Source of the DNA: Bacilli bacterium
GTDB lineage: Bacteria; Bacillota_I; Bacilli_A; RF39; UBA660
Assembly (NCBI GenBank): GCA_051872765.1
Contig: JBJEED010000091.1
Location: 17,878 to 81,877 of the forward strand
DNA: 64,000 bases
Reading direction: 5' to 3'
Numbering within the stretch: the stretch's first letter is position 1; each line of letters begins with the position of its first letter. Under the pieces are notes generated by a model that saw nothing but the letters and a program-made list of their open reading frames with translations, made no database searches and was not told where the DNA came from. Both the position numbers and the translations under genes were made by a program. Shown here piece after piece: positions 5,533 through 53,071 of this stretch.

Positions 5533-5584
5533 AACGTAATATGTTAGTATAGCAATCAATTTTAAAGAAAGGGGGTATTATACA

Positions 5585-12398: not shown

Positions 12399-12452
12399 AT
12401 ATTTTAAAAAAAATAATGATTGATTTTTTTTAAAATATAGTGTAATATATAT

Positions 12453-12525
12453 GCGTGCAACGAAAATGGTTTGAACCAGGTCAGAATCGGAAGATAGCAG
12501 CCTTAAAAAGCAAATTCGTGTGCAC
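12453..12525 (+). ncRNA. ffs: Small SRP RNA (4.5S/ffs-like)
   Basis: Conserved domain IV ACCAGGTCAGAATCGGAAGATAGCAGCC (E. coli 4.5S has ACCAGGUCAGGUCCGGAAGGAAGCAGCC). The 5' and 3' ends pair (GTGCAACGAA / TTCGTGTGCAC). Followed by a T-run. Lies next to tadA and dnaX as in Bacillus. Confidence 0.6.
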
Positions 12526-12545
12526 TTTTTTTATTAGGAGATATT

Positions 12546-46696: not shown

Positions 46697-48448
46697 TTAA
46701 TTTCTATTATATTTTAATGCTCTTTTATATTCATCTCTCATAAGTAGAAGTTCCATACTTCTTAAATTAAAATATTCTACTAGTCTTTCAAATTGTTCAA
46801 AATCAAAATCAAAATCTTTATCTTTGAATATAAATTTATGTGCTAAATATTGTTCATATAAATCAGGATATTTTCTAAGTGGGTCGCAAGATTGCGTATA
46901 TGTGTAAATTCCCATACCACTATGGTATAAAGGAGAAGTTGAGTATCTACTATCTAAATATAATTCACTTACTATATCTTTAATATATTGATAGTTTCCA
47001 ATACCACATTCATCTAATAATTCACTTATATATTCACCATCTTGATATCTATAAATATATGGAATATTATTTTCATTACAATATTTACCGAATAAAGTAT
47101 TATATAAAACCATAAATTCTCTTATAATCATATCGCCTTTAAAACTAATATTTTTGTAGTTTACACTTTTTGATTTTTCTTTTTTATCCCAGTATCTACT
47201 TTTTTTAATATCATTATATTCAAGTGCTTTAGATAGCATAAATAATTCTTCTAGTTGTCTTTTTAGTTCACTTTTATCACTACTATTCATAATTTCTTCG
47301 TTTTGTAAATATGAAAGGTTTCTACTAACTATAATAGTGTTCTTTTTAATATAATAATCTAATATCTCACCACTATCATTCATTACTACATATAATGATA
47401 TTGTATCTCTAGATTTACCTTTATCAAGTGATAGTGCATTTTCATATTCATGTGGTAGTATTCTCGTATTACCATATCTATATATACATTTAAAGTTATT
47501 TTTAGCATTAAGATCAACATCACTAAAAGGATCAATGTGTTTTCCTGCATCAGCAATATGTATGCCCACTATATATTTATTTCCATCTTTTTTAATGCTC
47601 AAGCCATCGTCTCTTAGTTTAGTATTATCACCATCTATAGTAAATATCTTCTCGTTTATACCTTTAGCTTTAGGTTCTAGTATAATTCCACTTTCAGGTA
47701 TCTTTTTTATTAAATTGTATTTATCTAGTATTTCACTTGGGGTTAAAGAAAATTTATTTCCATTTAATAAAGATACTATTTCTTTTGCAAATGGATTATC
47801 TTCTAAACCAATTAAATAGCTTTTATATTTATCATGTTCTATATCAGGATTATCTAATATTCTAAGTAATGTTAAGTAGTAGTATATATTCTCATTATTA
47901 TTATTTATAGATGAGATAGTTTTTTTAAAAACAAAATCAAATAAATCTGTTTTTTCTATTGATATAACATTTTTATATTCATTTATAAATTTTTTAATAA
48001 TATTAGGATTTTCATTTTTATTTATAAGAATTTTTATAAATTTAACAAAACCTTCTGTATACATTTGTTTATCTAAAATTATACTTTCTAATCTTTCCAC
48101 ATTATCTATAAGAGATTGATTATTATATTTATTTGCATAAGACATTATGGATAATTTAGCTTTTTTAATTCGTTCCTTATTAACTATTATTTCTTTTTCG
48201 GTAAATGTTCTATTATTGCATAGTACATAAATCATATTAACACATTTAGTAATGCATTCATCTATATATTCATCTTCACCATTTGATAATTTATATATGT
48301 AATCATTTAAAATATCAAATGATATTTTAATAATTTTATTGATTGTAATATTTTTATGTTCATTAAGCTTTCCAAAAAGTTTATCTACACTTTTTGAATC
48401 AATTTTATCATGTAATATAAATCTTTTAATAACTGCTTTAGTGTCCAT
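46697..48448 (-). CDS. Divergent RNB-domain (RNase II/R family) protein without cold-shock or S1 domains
   Basis: IDGDNTKLRDDGLS resembles RNB motif I (IDGEDARDFDDA); YTYTQSCDPLRKYPDLYEQYLAHKF resembles RNase R YTHFTSPIRRYPDL...H. The N-terminal 270 aa match no known family. Confidence 0.6.
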   Translation of the reverse strand: MDTKAVIKRFILHDKIDSKSVDKLFGKLNEHKNITINKIIKISFDILNDYIYKLSNGEDEYIDECITKCVNMIYVLCNNRTFTEKEIIVNKERIKKAKLSIMSYANKYNNQSLIDNVERLESIILDKQMYTEGFVKFIKILINKNENPNIIKKFINEYKNVISIEKTDLFDFVFKKTISSINNNNENIYYYLTLLRILDNPDIEHDKYKSYLIGLEDNPFAKEIVSLLNGNKFSLTPSEILDKYNLIKKIPESGIILEPKAKGINEKIFTIDGDNTKLRDDGLSIKKDGNKYIVGIHIADAGKHIDPFSDVDLNAKNNFKCIYRYGNTRILPHEYENALSLDKGKSRDTISLYVVMNDSGEILDYYIKKNTIIVSRNLSYLQNEEIMNSSDKSELKRQLEELFMLSKALEYNDIKKSRYWDKKEKSKSVNYKNISFKGDMIIREFMVLYNTLFGKYCNENNIPYIYRYQDGEYISELLDECGIGNYQYIKDIVSELYLDSRYSTSPLYHSGMGIYTYTQSCDPLRKYPDLYEQYLAHKFIFKDKDFDFDFEQFERLVEYFNLRSMELLLMRDEYKRALKYNRN

Positions 48449-48530
48449 AATAATCTCCAGACTTATGTTATCATATTACAATTTAATTTTACAAGTAAAT
48501 ATGATATAATTTTTTTATAAAGGAGCAGTT

Positions 48531-49019
48531 ATGTATAAATATAAAAAGAATATTATAAGAGTTTTAACTTGTATTTATGTAATTTTATCAATAATAGAAT
48601 TTATTAAATATTTTTTTGTGAATAGTAATTTATTTGGTTTAATATATTTAATTATAAATATATTTATTATATTTTTATTAGTACCGGTAGCTTATAATTA
48701 CAATAAATACTATTCTATACCTAGAATTAGTAAGTTAATAATGGTAATAATATTGGGTATATTTAGTAGTTATATATTGAATAATATTGTAATTAATAAT
48801 ATGAGCTATACTGATGCTTCTATTATATATAATAATAAAATTTTTATAACAAAAAATATATTAAAAGTGATAGTTTACTTTGCACTAACTATATTTACAA
48901 TATTTGAATTTAAACTAGATAAATTAATAAAGAATATAACGGATAATAACAAAACGATTAATAAAAGTACTAAACGAAAAAAAATCAAACATAGACAAAA
49001 TAAAAAGAAAATGGTATAA
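48531..49019 (+). CDS. Hypothetical small polytopic membrane protein
   Basis: Four hydrophobic segments, basic C-terminal tail. Confidence 0.4.
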   Translation: MYKYKKNIIRVLTCIYVILSIIEFIKYFFVNSNLFGLIYLIINIFIIFLLVPVAYNYNKYYSIPRISKLIMVIILGIFSSYILNNIVINNMSYTDASIIYNNKIFITKNILKVIVYFALTIFTIFEFKLDKLIKNITDNNKTINKSTKRKKIKHRQNKKKMV

Positions 49020-49035
49020 TATGAAAAAATTTAAG

Positions 49036-49052
49036 TTTTTTTTTGGGGGGGG
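49036..49052 (+). repeat. Homopolymeric tract T9 followed by G8 at the start of an ORFan gene
   Basis: T-run 49036-49044 and G-run 49045-49052. A G8 run is highly atypical for this genome. The tract sits 4 nt upstream of ATG 49057 and inside the frame opened by ATG 49021. Confidence 0.8.
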
Positions 49053-49056
49053 TAAA

Positions 49057-49713
49057 ATGAAAATTGTTGTAATTGAAAGCAAAAAAGATTTAGACAGTAT
49101 AAGAAATATTGATGATGATAGAATATTATTATTTTTTGTAAAAGATATTAAATTTGATGGGGAATTTGAACCTATTAATAAAGAAAATTGTGAGATAATT
49201 ATATTTGGAAATAATTGTACTTTAGAAAATATTGTTATAAATAAACCTAATACTAATGATATTGGTTTGTTTTCAAAAGTTAAAAGTATGAATGTTAGAG
49301 ATCTAAAAATATTAAATTCACATATTAAATCTGGTGAGGTTTGTGGTTCATTAGTAGGAAGAGTAGATAATTCAATTAAGGCAAAAAATGTTACTGTTTA
49401 TGCTAATATTGATTCTGATAGTATCATTGGAGGAATTGTAGGTTCTACAAGAACAGCGAATATTTCAAATTGTAGTATTAGTGGTAATTTTTCAGCAAGA
49501 GGTATAATAGGGGGGTTAATTGGTATATGTAATTCTTTTGAAGGAAATAAAAATAACATAGATTCATTTTCTTTTAATACTGATCCAAACTATACCACAT
49601 GTACTATACATTTGGATGTAGGTTATTTAAGTGAAAGAGAAGAAAAAAATCTAACAATGAAATTAATACCTTTAATGAAAGATACAACTTTATCGGAGTA
49701 TTACATAAAGTAA
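49057..49713 (+). CDS. Hypothetical protein with Gly-rich GGIVG/GGLIG repeats; the alternative start ATG 49021 reads through the T9G8 tract
   Basis: ORF of 218-230 aa; an internal G6 run lies at 49510-49515. Confidence 0.5.
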   Translation: MKIVVIESKKDLDSIRNIDDDRILLFFVKDIKFDGEFEPINKENCEIIIFGNNCTLENIVINKPNTNDIGLFSKVKSMNVRDLKILNSHIKSGEVCGSLVGRVDNSIKAKNVTVYANIDSDSIIGGIVGSTRTANISNCSISGNFSARGIIGGLIGICNSFEGNKNNIDSFSFNTDPNYTTCTIHLDVGYLSEREEKNLTMKLIPLMKDTTLSEYYIK

Positions 49714-49885
49714 TACTCTCTTTTAATTGGCTATAAAATATTAGTATTTTTTATAAAAGTATTGATTCTTTATAAAAAAAATGTATAATAATATCTCGAA
49801 ATATCAATTAAAATAATAGGTTAGTTGACAAAAGGCATATTTTATGGTATAATATGCACAATTAACAAAAGGGGGAAAGGTTGTT

Positions 49886-51145
49886 ATGAATGAAAGTTTA
49901 TTATTAAATATGAGAAAGTTCAAAAATGAACTAAAAAATGAAAGATTAATTTTAGTTGAGCAATATAATCAAGCTACTACTGTTGCTGAGAAGAATGAGA
50001 TTGTTGATAGAGTAGAAGTACTAGATGCTATTTTTAGAGAAGTGGTTGCTGCTATTGTTGCTAAAGATGAAAGTAAATTAGAAGAATTAGCTGAAAAATA
50101 TGGTGTTAAATACGATAAAGACGAAAAAGAAACTAATTCTAAATTACCAGAAGAAAAGGTAAATGATAAAAAATCATTTTTTAAACAATTACCAATATGT
50201 TTACTAGCTGGTATTGCAGGTGGATTACTTGGACGTTGCGCTTATGACTTATTAAATGCTAATACTGCTATTGAAGAAGATATGGATGAAGATTTAACTT
50301 CTGATAAAAAAGTTAGTAAAAATGAAAAACCATTTGAAGTATATGGTGAGTTTAATGATTCTTCAAATGAAAAACAAATTCAAAATAGAGCAGTTTGGTT
50401 CTATGATAATTATGTTTCTAAAAATTCAGGTGTTAATCAAATCAGTACAAATGATCTTATGAATGTAATTAGAATGACAAATGGAGAATTTAAATTAGAT
50501 GATAGTGGAAATATTACTTATAATGCCATGGATATTATAGATGCTGCAAATGATATTCACACTATTGCAAATTATGCTTCATTTTCTCAAAATAAAAATA
50601 ATTTAACATTTGTGCCATATGCTCCATTATTTGAAGATGGGTCATTAGCACAACAAGGCGCTACTATATTGGATGATGCATATAAAAAAGTAGTAGATGC
50701 AATTAAAGCTGATGATGTAGAAGCATTTAAAGAAGCAGCAAAGCAATGGGGAATTGCAGTTGTAAATATTTTTGAACAAAATGATTTTACTGGTAAATAT
50801 CCAAGTGTATTTCAAATGGAGCCAGCTCAAGCATATCAATTATATCAAGTGATGTATGCTACATATGGAACAACAATTTTTGAATATGGACAATCAAGAA
50901 ATGTAAATATTTGTATTCCATATTGTACTGATTATAATAGTTCAGAATTAGTAGAAACTCCATTATCTGAAATTATTTATCAGTTAAATGAAGTTCCAAC
51001 AGATTGGGTTGCTAAGAGAAGTGGACATGAAAGTGAATATGCAGAAAATAACTTGTCATTACCAGAAGAGTTGTATTTAGCATCTAAGAATTATTATGAT
51101 AGTAAATATGAGTTAGAGATTGGTAAAAGTAGAGTTTTAAAATAA
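49886..51145 (+). CDS. Hypothetical protein with a central TM segment; composition richer in Ala/Val/Gly than its neighbours
   Basis: Preceded by a perfect sigma-A promoter, TTGACA-17-TATAAT (about 49826-49854), and a strong RBS AAAGGGGGAAAGG. Confidence 0.5.
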   Translation: MNESLLLNMRKFKNELKNERLILVEQYNQATTVAEKNEIVDRVEVLDAIFREVVAAIVAKDESKLEELAEKYGVKYDKDEKETNSKLPEEKVNDKKSFFKQLPICLLAGIAGGLLGRCAYDLLNANTAIEEDMDEDLTSDKKVSKNEKPFEVYGEFNDSSNEKQIQNRAVWFYDNYVSKNSGVNQISTNDLMNVIRMTNGEFKLDDSGNITYNAMDIIDAANDIHTIANYASFSQNKNNLTFVPYAPLFEDGSLAQQGATILDDAYKKVVDAIKADDVEAFKEAAKQWGIAVVNIFEQNDFTGKYPSVFQMEPAQAYQLYQVMYATYGTTIFEYGQSRNVNICIPYCTDYNSSELVETPLSEIIYQLNEVPTDWVAKRSGHESEYAENNLSLPEELYLASKNYYDSKYELEIGKSRVLK

Positions 51146-51167: not shown

Positions 51168-52562
51168 ATGTATAGTAATAAAAGAAATGGTTTTAGTATT
51201 TTAGATATTCTTGTTAAAATTATATTCATTGCGTTGTTTATATTTATTCTAATATGGTTATTTAAAAAGAATGTGCCAAATATGACTGCATTTTATAGTA
51301 ATGTGTTTAGAGAAAATATAAAGTATATGCAAGAAGCAGGTGAAAGTTATTTTACTGATGATAAAATGCCTCAAAATGTTGGTGATACAGTTAAAATTAC
51401 TTTAGCTGAAATGTTTGAAAAGAAATTAATATTACCATTTGTAGATGAAGATGGAAATTCTTGTAATCAATATGAATCTTATGTAAGTATTACTAAAGAA
51501 GTTGATGAAAGTTATTCTTTAAAAACAAACTTAGTATGTAATAAAGAACAGGATTATACAATTAAAGTACTTGGATGCCATAACTATTGTAAAGATAGTG
51601 AATGCTCTAAAACTTGTAGTATTGAAAAAATAACATCTTATCAATATAAAAAATTAGCAACTTCAACTAAGACTGTATATAGTTGTCCAAGTGGCTATAA
51701 ATTAGATGGTAAGTATTGTATTAAAACAATACTTGCTGATACAACATCAGCGAAAGTAACAACTGTTTCTACAACTAAAGTAGAAGTGCCTGCTATTGTA
51801 AAAAAAGTTGAGGGAGAAAAGACACTTTTAAATACTATTAAGACTAGTGTTCGTGAGTATGTAGATAGAATTGAAACAACAACACCAGGTCAAACTACTA
51901 CAACAACTATTCCATATACTTGTACAAAAGAACAAACTACTAGACAATGTTCAACAACTTATACACAAAATGCATATTCTTGTAATTGTACTACTCATGT
52001 AGGTCCAACAGGAAAACCAAGTACTACTTGTAGCACATGTTATGAAACTGTACCAGTTGAAACTTGTAAGGATGTAACTTCTACATATCAAGATACATGC
52101 TATAAGAGTGTGACATCTACTACTCCAGATGTAACTACTTATTCTTGTCCAGTTGATACAATTGAAGAAGGATCTGGAGAAAACTTAAAATGTTATAAGG
52201 TTGTTAAAAAATATAGTTGTCCAGCAGAAGCAAATTTAAAAGAGGGAAGTGGATCTAGTCTTAAATGTTATAAAGTCAAGGAAGGATCAGTTACATATAC
52301 TTGTCCTGATAGTACTTATACATTAAGTGCAGATAAGTGTTATAAGTATATTAATGAAGAAAGTACACAATATATTTGTAAAGATGGTTATAAATTAGAA
52401 GGAACTTTATGTAAGAAATATACTACTGAAAAAATTAAAGCAAATTCCAAGAAAGTAACTACTAAATATTATAAATATCAATGGAGTACTAAGACATCAA
52501 TTCCAGGATGGACTAAGACTGGTAAAACTAAAACTATAAATGGAAAAGAGATTTGTAAATAA
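51168..52562 (+). CDS. Cys-rich secreted/surface protein with a type IV pilin-like N-terminus
   Basis: N-terminus MYSNKRNGFSILDILVKIIFIALFIF resembles a class III (prepilin) signal, with Asp at +5. More than 30 Cys occur in recurring C-x(10-14)-C-Y-K units (CPSGYKLDGKYC, CPVDTIEEGSGENLKCYKV, CPAEANLKEGSGSSLKCYKV, and others). Confidence 0.5.
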   Translation: MYSNKRNGFSILDILVKIIFIALFIFILIWLFKKNVPNMTAFYSNVFRENIKYMQEAGESYFTDDKMPQNVGDTVKITLAEMFEKKLILPFVDEDGNSCNQYESYVSITKEVDESYSLKTNLVCNKEQDYTIKVLGCHNYCKDSECSKTCSIEKITSYQYKKLATSTKTVYSCPSGYKLDGKYCIKTILADTTSAKVTTVSTTKVEVPAIVKKVEGEKTLLNTIKTSVREYVDRIETTTPGQTTTTTIPYTCTKEQTTRQCSTTYTQNAYSCNCTTHVGPTGKPSTTCSTCYETVPVETCKDVTSTYQDTCYKSVTSTTPDVTTYSCPVDTIEEGSGENLKCYKVVKKYSCPAEANLKEGSGSSLKCYKVKEGSVTYTCPDSTYTLSADKCYKYINEESTQYICKDGYKLEGTLCKKYTTEKIKANSKKVTTKYYKYQWSTKTSIPGWTKTGKTKTINGKEICK

Positions 52563-52624
52563 ATCTCTCTTTTTTTTTCATTTTGTTGTATAATATTAAG
52601 TAGATTTTTAAATTGAGGTGTATT

Positions 52625-53071
52625 ATGAAAAAAAATAAAAATATAATTATTATTATTAGTATACTATTTGGATTTGTATTATTTTTTATATTGTCATTTA
52701 TGATATCTGGTAATACTAGTGAACCACTAAAAGAAAATGTAAATATTGATGAATGGTATAGTGAAACTCAAAAGGATGAATATGTCATTACTGTAATCGG
52801 ACAAACTACTTGTCCAAACTGTAAAGCTTATAAACCTATTATTTCAAGTTTATCTACTAAATATAAACTTAACTTATATTTCTTTGAAAGTGATATGTTA
52901 GAAGAAGAAGAATATAATAAATTAATTAGTTCATATGAGGAATTTGACCATGAATATGTTCCATTTACGGCTATTACTAAAAATGGTAAAGTATTAACTA
53001 CGACTGTTGGGAAAAAAGAGAAAAATGAACTAATTGAATTTTTAAAAGAATATGGAGTTATTAAAAACTAG
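52625..53071 (+). CDS. Membrane-anchored thioredoxin-fold thiol-disulfide oxidoreductase (CPNC active site)
   Basis: N-terminal TM, then VITVIGQTTCPNCKAY, a Trx-like CxxC context. Start taken at ATG 52625. Confidence 0.6.
   Translation: MKKNKNIIIIISILFGFVLFFILSFMISGNTSEPLKENVNIDEWYSETQKDEYVITVIGQTTCPNCKAYKPIISSLSTKYKLNLYFFESDMLEEEEYNKLISSYEEFDHEYVPFTAITKNGKVLTTTVGKKEKNELIEFLKEYGVIKN

Follow-up and report, generated by a model that had tools for sequence, protein, structure and literature searches.

Immediately upstream of a gene in the 64 kb stretch of DNA analysed here, referred to below as the window, nine T residues are followed by eight G residues, and the question raised by this locus is whether such a homopolymeric tract is a phase-variation switch or plays another part in the expression of the gene. 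On the forward strand, the region 49021-49059 reads ATG AAA AAA TTT AAG T9 G8 TAAA ATG, that is an ATG (49021-49023) followed by the T-run (49036-49044), the G-run (49045-49052), a TAAA spacer (49053-49056) and a second ATG (49057), every element being present as originally noted. The open reading frame (ORF) from ATG 49021 amounts to 230 aa, is in frame with ATG 49057 and stops at 49713, and the gene read from ATG 49057 (49057-49713) encodes a product of 218 aa. The original prediction held that slippage in either run would shift the frame from ATG 49021 or change the spacing of the ribosome-binding site, and thereby toggle the expression of an ORFan, a behaviour held to be typical of surface or variable proteins.

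The locus was compared with an allele series taken from public-assembly contigs (ENA, Logan, NCBI) encoding the 218-aa protein or close relatives. Besides the lineage of the window itself, the comparison covers a sister lineage, called here lineage B (L005, L008 and L044-L050), with 91-94% nucleotide identity to the window, and lineage C (L009 and L010), in which the protein is only 53% identical.

G-runs in the window

At a GC content of 23.4%, no G or C run other than the G8 reaches 7 nt in the window, where 0.012 (independent bases) to 0.026 (first-order Markov) G8 runs are expected. The run is thus unusual within the window as claimed, but calling it extraordinarily improbable was an overstatement, as the same expectation extrapolated to a genome of 1-2 Mb comes to roughly 0.2-0.8. 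With T9 and G8, the tract has the length from which homopolymers are taken to be slippage-prone (about 7-8 or more for G/C, 9 or more for A/T); the tracts of relatives are far shorter, e.g. T3G5. G5 runs are found at 5571, 49871 and 51155, each 8-10 nt 5' of a start codon, and, judging from these sites, GGGGG is a common Shine-Dalgarno form in the host organism. Since GGGGG commonly serves as a Shine-Dalgarno sequence here, the G8 can be regarded as a lengthened functional motif. On the opposite strand, an ORF of 52 aa (48924-49082), with PPP encoded by the C-run, was without support and judged spurious.

Predicted promoter and leader of a probable one-gene unit

A SigA/sigma-70-type promoter is predicted at 48992-49020 on the forward strand, with TAGACA as -35 hexamer (48992-48997), a spacer of 17 nt and TGgTATAAT as extended -10 element (49012-49020). 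It agrees with the consensus at 11 of 12 positions, in addition to the TG extension, and is the second-best match within 48300-50000; lineage B keeps it as TAGACA-N17-TGaTATAAT. From this extended -10 promoter, transcription would begin at about 49026-49028, and ATG 49021 would consequently be left off the mRNA because the predicted transcription start, at about 49027, lies downstream of it. The next gene has a 12/12 promoter (49825-49853) whose -10 element is made up of the same TGGTATAATATG, and there the ATG within TGGTATAATATG is plainly no start codon. The upstream ATG 49021 would similarly be a sequence accident following the -10 box, with the same TATAATATG in the next promoter.

The T9G8 tract would form the core of a 5' untranslated leader of about 30 nt, the U-run being its unstructured part. 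Sequestration of the Shine-Dalgarno sequence by RNA structure in the leader was rejected, the secondary structures predicted for four alleles folding no better than shuffled sequences (z from +0.28 to -1.7). At the other end of the gene, a terminator-like hairpin of 10 pairs (49695-49719) with a T-rich tail (49695-49729 in all, forward strand) overlaps the stop codon; it is the single site of this type detected, where shuffled sequences would give 0.1. With this hairpin at its end, the gene looks like a one-gene transcription unit, which would consist of the predicted promoter, the leader of about 30 nt, the ORF 49057-49713 and the terminator.

Other roles for the tract in transcription were considered. 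The idea that the T-run belongs, as its tail, to an intrinsic terminator of the upstream gene was rejected, no hairpin being found. An alternative promoter, TTTAAG-N17-TAAAAT, with the tract as its spacer, matches the -35 consensus at only 3 of 6 positions and falls below the scan threshold; it would initiate transcription 3' of ATG 49057 and is not conserved among relatives. The tract does not lie between -35 and -10 hexamers but 16 nt 3' of the -10 box of the only strong promoter, an arrangement that, as read from the sequence, does not correspond to promoter-spacer phase variation of the porA, opc, hif or vlp type.

The start codon in use

Sequence comparison indicates that the true start is ATG 49057. 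The N-termini of 15 homologues, which include stand-alone proteins of 200-240 aa with 26-53% identity, align with the Met at 49057, and none of these 15 sequences has a counterpart of the N-terminal extension MKKFKFFFGGGK. Besides, the 218-aa product was called on 7 contigs, and the 230-aa product is recorded by no gene caller in the collection. The ATG at 49021, placed 1 nt after the -10 hexamer and lacking a Shine-Dalgarno sequence, is most likely no start codon: in lineage B the frame that it opens closes after four codons with a stop (ATG AAA AAA TTT TAA), and in lineage C (L009 and L010) it is absent.

These observations bear directly on the switch as first conceived, in which translation starts at ATG 49021 and slippage of the T- or G-run turns a 230-aa protein on and off by frameshifting. 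It is true that this ATG is in frame through the tract and that both alleles of the window lineage, of 17 and 14 nt, keep that frame. An ATG abutting the -10 box without a Shine-Dalgarno sequence, interrupted by TAA in lineage B, missing from lineage C and without an equivalent in homologues that begin at the second Met is nonetheless a most implausible start, and such a frameshift switch appears extremely unlikely. The tract lies outside the ORF in use, upstream of ATG 49057, and not within a translated frame as in translational phase variation; because it precedes the real start, it cannot frameshift the ORF, and any frameshift 5' of ATG 49057 would spare an ORF driven by its own Shine-Dalgarno sequence.

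The G-run as ribosome-binding site

The part of the original prediction that assigned the G-run a role as Shine-Dalgarno sequence of ATG 49057 holds well. The G-run would pair with the CCUCC anti-Shine-Dalgarno sequence of the 16S rRNA, translation then proceeding from ATG 49057, and the predicted duplex (-11.4 kcal/mol) is among the four strongest of about 47 window genes. No allele has fewer than 5 Gs, and the last G is always separated from the ATG by 4 nt, or by 5 nt in lineage C. The proposed change of spacing is therefore not borne out, because slippage within the run cannot shift its 3' edge; a change in length would alter only the length of the leader and the 5' extent, hence the pairing registers, of the Shine-Dalgarno sequence. 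A G5 offers one pairing register with a spacing of 4 nt and a G8 offers four, with spacings of 4-7 nt, and the other GGGGG or GGAGG sites of the window are mostly located 7-10 nt from start codons. Longer G-runs could modestly raise translation, so that a graded effect of tract length on expression is conceivable, amounting at most to tuning and not to an on/off frame switch.

Since at least 5 Gs are kept and the edge of the G-run is fixed, the gene should be translatable in every state observed. Among the alleles of the assemblies compared, all with at least 5 Gs and a spacer of 4-5 nt, none is predicted to be OFF. The most probable interpretation, in our opinion, is a ribosome-binding site that is prone to slippage but always ON, the lengths of the tract drifting fast between strains because both runs would be subject to replication slippage.

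Tract length variation among strains

Within the window lineage, T9G8 is present in 4 assemblies (the window metagenome-assembled genome, SRR30616827, SRR30616838 and SRR30616851) and T8G6 in 2 (SRR30616826 and SRR30616808), all six encoding an identical 218-aa protein. The sister lineage displays T6G6 in one assembly (L005), T4G6 in another (L050, with 99.5% gene identity to L005), T3G6 in 2 assemblies and T3G5 in 4, and the 53% lineage has T6G5 in 2 assemblies. In other words, the T-run occurs as T3, T4, T6, T8 or T9 and the G-run as G5, G6 or G8, never fewer than 5. Scanning the JGI metagenome collection for exact matches to TGRTATAATATGAAAAAATTT returned 33 loci, all of them chance matches with no tract or gene downstream.

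A single length fixed in all related strains was the finding that was to speak against the original prediction, and it is not what is observed, since the lengths differ: near-identical strains carry T9G8 or T8G6, and each related haplotype has T and G lengths of its own. The window and L002 are separated by 3 SNPs over 3.9 kb, and of the 27 homopolymer runs in that stretch (at least 6 A/T or at least 5 G/C) the tract alone has an indel; the window and L004 show zero differences in 1.77 kb apart from the tract. In lineage B, L005 and L050 differ by 12 SNPs in 1.87 kb and their sole indel is in the T-run of the tract. As in contingency loci, the length thus differs between close strains (0-3 SNPs in 1.8-3.9 kb), which supports a hypervariable tract and a recurrent site of indels. 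By contrast, the Shine-Dalgarno sequences at 49871 and 51155, which belong to the two genes that follow, keep exactly five Gs in all lineages; a tract that varies with nearly every haplotype beside these fixed neighbours could reflect selection for variability instead of neutral drift. As to the mutational event, the passage from T9G8 to T8G6 could be a single 3-nt deletion over the T/G junction and not slippage.

As all the data are metagenome assemblies and Illumina indel error is higher in long homopolymers, the length differences might be put down to sequencing or assembly errors. The alleles recur, however, across independent samples and assemblers (4 times for T9G8 and T3G5, twice for T8G6 and T3G6), the two adjacent runs change together, and those same contigs show no difference in the A8 runs at 48977 and 49774. 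Given this recurrence in independent samples and the constancy of the nearby A8 runs, error is hardly a credible explanation.

Another proposal is that of a graded contingency locus, in which the Shine-Dalgarno sequence itself is hypermutable, the lengths of the T/G tract set levels of expression and populations mix lengths under selection; the alleles would then act as a heritable rheostat for the translation of a GLUG beta-helix protein that is cytoplasmic or exported by an unconventional route. In line with this, two independent pairs of near-identical strains differ by no indel other than that in the tract, tract lengths are particular to each haplotype next to adjacent G5 Shine-Dalgarno sequences that are fixed, T9 and G8 are at lengths usually flagged as slippage-prone, and tracts in leaders or upstream regions have precedents in uspA1 (PMC7302503), espR (PMC11898584) and sabA (PMC4081817). 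Against it, one allele makes up the assembly consensus across several samples (T9G8 in 4, T3G5 in 4), no intermediate such as T9G7 or T8G8 was seen in the assemblies of the window lineage, short alleles such as T3G5 are not hypermutable by the usual criteria, and the product is without export signal. Besides, another intergenic T-run, at about 48510 upstream of the ORF starting at 48531, is indel-polymorphic between lineages as well as between L048 and L049, and intergenic homopolymer indels accordingly appear to be common, hence ordinary, in this clade. On balance, a rheostat under selection is considered rather unlikely, though more probable than the other alternatives to an always-ON ribosome-binding site.

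The two alleles found in the window lineage, with tracts of 17 and 14 nt, leave ATG 49021 in frame, which has a 1-in-3 chance of occurring under neutrality and is also expected under selection for an N-terminally extended product. Such a product could arise by dual initiation restricted to the window lineage, where, on read-through transcripts, ribosomes terminating on the upstream ORF would reinitiate at ATG 49021 and synthesise an isoform 12 residues longer; changes of the tract by other than a multiple of three would then abolish the isoform and send ribosomes out of frame over the main ribosome-binding site. The stop codon at 49017-49019 and the ATG are indeed 1 nt apart (TAATATG) and there is no terminator between the upstream 162-aa gene and the gene under study. 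The arrangement is lineage-specific, however, relatives having a stop after the ATG or no ATG; the MKKFKFFFGGGK extension is without counterpart in any homologue compared, and the internal promoter suggests independent transcription. Dual initiation is therefore regarded as very unlikely.

A small predicted GLUG-type beta-helix protein

The gene at 49057-49713 (forward strand) encodes a 218-aa stand-alone protein, predicted to be a GLUG-type right-handed beta-helix followed by two C-terminal helices. It is no ORFan: while a word-indexed search retrieved 2 close relatives only, HMMER returned 2,977 matches at E <=1e-3, 351 of them at E <=1e-10, and among these matches is a family of small stand-alone proteins (about 200-240 aa). 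Besides these small proteins, the matches comprise giant multi-repeat proteins, in which repeated modules match residues 50-160 or so of the query, and the two that were scanned (749 and 1,131 aa) exhibit strong Pfam Glug and Peptidase_M26_N domains, with an E of 4.5e-58 for Glug in the giant homologues. The query itself reaches E 0.008 and 17 bits against Pfam Glug, under the family cutoff of 20.5. Searched against the PDB, the family profile matched the N-terminal domain, a beta-helix, of the streptococcal and Gemella IgA1 proteases (E 1.6e-5).

An AlphaFold2 model built from 16 sequences shows the beta-helix and the two C-terminal helices with a pLDDT of 90, where a model from a 2-sequence alignment was unusable (pLDDT 53). 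The best Foldseek matches were 3n6z (E 9.5e-4) and 7uvk (TM 0.61, rmsd 4.6 over 212 columns), the modelled right-handed beta-helix thus matching the fold of solved GLUG domains. The family of small GLUG beta-helix proteins to which the product belongs is widespread but uncharacterised.

By inspection, no signal peptide, membrane segment or anchor is present in the 218-aa product, so that its designation as a surface protein lacks support. The GGxxG repeats noted in the protein correspond to GLUG motifs. An internal G6 does occur at 49510-49515 (forward strand), as had been noted, and is a GGG GGG codon pair encoding the invariant Gly-Gly of a GLUG motif, such GGGGGG pairs numbering three in the long ORFs of the window; its interpretation as a second contingency element has to be dropped, relatives using GGA GGT or GGC GGA, and because these codons are synonymous the G6 is not maintained as a homopolymer.

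Genomic neighbourhood

The conserved upstream neighbour is a 162-aa hydrophobic protein with a Lys-rich tail (48531-49019, forward strand), whose TAA stop codon (49017-49019) falls within the -10 box. The pair formed by this gene and the GLUG-like gene is present in all related loci (63% identity in the distant locus L010). An A8 run in the 3' end of this upstream ORF (48977-48984) is an A7 in the sister lineage, and this puts the Lys-rich C-terminal tail in a different frame there, with a different stop (162 vs 160 aa). Further upstream, on the reverse strand, a 583-aa RNB-domain protein (46697-48448) scores about 70 bits against RNase R/RNase II equivalog cutoffs of 369-598 and seems to be a 3'-5' exoribonuclease of divergent or shortened form.

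Downstream, a 419-aa gene (49886-51145) is preceded by a promoter and leader (49825-49885) of the form TTGACA-N17-TGGTATAAT ATGCACAATTAACAAAAGGGGGAAAGGTTGTT ATG. This region is nearly identical base for base in all lineages (about 5760-5820 in L005, about 855-925 in L009), including the lineage with only 53% identity in the GLUG-like protein, an uncommonly high conservation for non-coding DNA. Beyond the 419-aa gene come a 464-aa Cys/Thr-rich ORF (51168-52562) that starts with MYSNKRNGFSILDILV, resembling a prepilin-type cleavage motif (G|FS-I-L-D), and a PedC-like thioredoxin (52613-53071). The 464-aa ORF, the thioredoxin and the membrane-spanning 419-aa protein may constitute a surface-fibre or secretion cluster beside the GLUG-like gene. 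Searches of Pfam, NCBIfam and PDB returned no significant family for the upstream 162-aa protein or for the downstream 419-aa and 464-aa proteins.

On a larger scale, the window covers the chromosomal replication-origin region, with dnaA (2720), dnaN (4279), gyrB (7216) and gyrA (9161), as well as the SRP RNA (12444-12540) and tRNA-Cys, the sign of the GC skew flipping near 2 kb.

Significance and relation to known systems

If the tract merely drifts, this locus is a cautionary case in which a homopolymer next to an in-frame ATG mimics a frameshift switch, and in which relatives reveal an ordinary, fast-evolving ribosome-binding site. If, on the other hand, its lengths set expression, it would add a case of a Shine-Dalgarno sequence acting as a variable repeat, in an uncultured and very AT-rich lineage of gut Bacilli; repeat-mediated variation has hardly been studied in such an uncultured Firmicute lineage. 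Were this true, it would suggest a role under fluctuating selection for the widespread small proteins of the GLUG beta-helix type and for the conserved membrane protein that accompanies them.

Regarding the protein, the GLUG beta-helix of the M26 IgA1 proteases and giant adhesins (PF07581, PF05342; 6XJA, 7UVK, 3N6Z) is homologous in fold and probably in sequence. Unlike them, the product stands alone, at about 218 aa, and lacks a protease domain, a signal peptide, an anchor and any repeats beyond one helix; the family of its small stand-alone relatives has no Pfam family of its own.

Regarding the tract, Campylobacter, Neisseria and Haemophilus rely on intragenic poly-G/C tracts for on/off frameshift phase variation (PMC6321876, PMC5084427). 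The G8, close to the beginning of a gene and in a genome rich in AT, resembles these classical systems, but their tracts are inside the ORF, past the real start, whereas the present one is upstream of it. Closer in its layout is uspA1 of Moraxella catarrhalis, where a poly-G of 6-12 located 29 bp upstream of the ORF is linked to graded mRNA levels (PMC7302503 and the work cited there). Both G-runs are of similar size (5-8 here), outside the ORF and upstream of the start codon by a few tens of bases at most, and variable between strains, and any effect would be graded and independent of the reading frame. The uspA1 tract, however, is not a Shine-Dalgarno sequence and acts on the level of mRNA, switching and phenotype have been measured for uspA1, and its product is a surface adhesin, whereas the 218-aa product is without export signal.

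In Mycobacterium tuberculosis, the 5'UTR of espR contains a G7 in which a recurrent +1 indel among strains changes translation (PMC11898584). Here as in espR, a G homopolymer is found in the 5' leader and the reading frame is unaffected. In espR, however, the tract is located 144 bp 5' of the start codon and acts via folding of the leader, unlike the present leader of about 30 nt, which has no significant predicted structure and in which the tract would be the Shine-Dalgarno sequence itself. In Helicobacter pylori, a promoter-proximal T-tract of sabA works as a rheostat, its length tuning expression stepwise (PMC4081817). The T-run described here is likewise a T homopolymer adjoining expression signals and polymorphic in length. 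The sabA T-tract lies at the promoter, reportedly upstream of it, and acts on transcription initiation, unlike the T-run here, which lies 3' of the -10 box in the predicted leader.

From a non-exhaustive search of the literature, we know of no well-characterised example of a Shine-Dalgarno sequence that is itself the variable tract. If functional, the present tract would, in this respect, represent a variant among the graded leader repeats.
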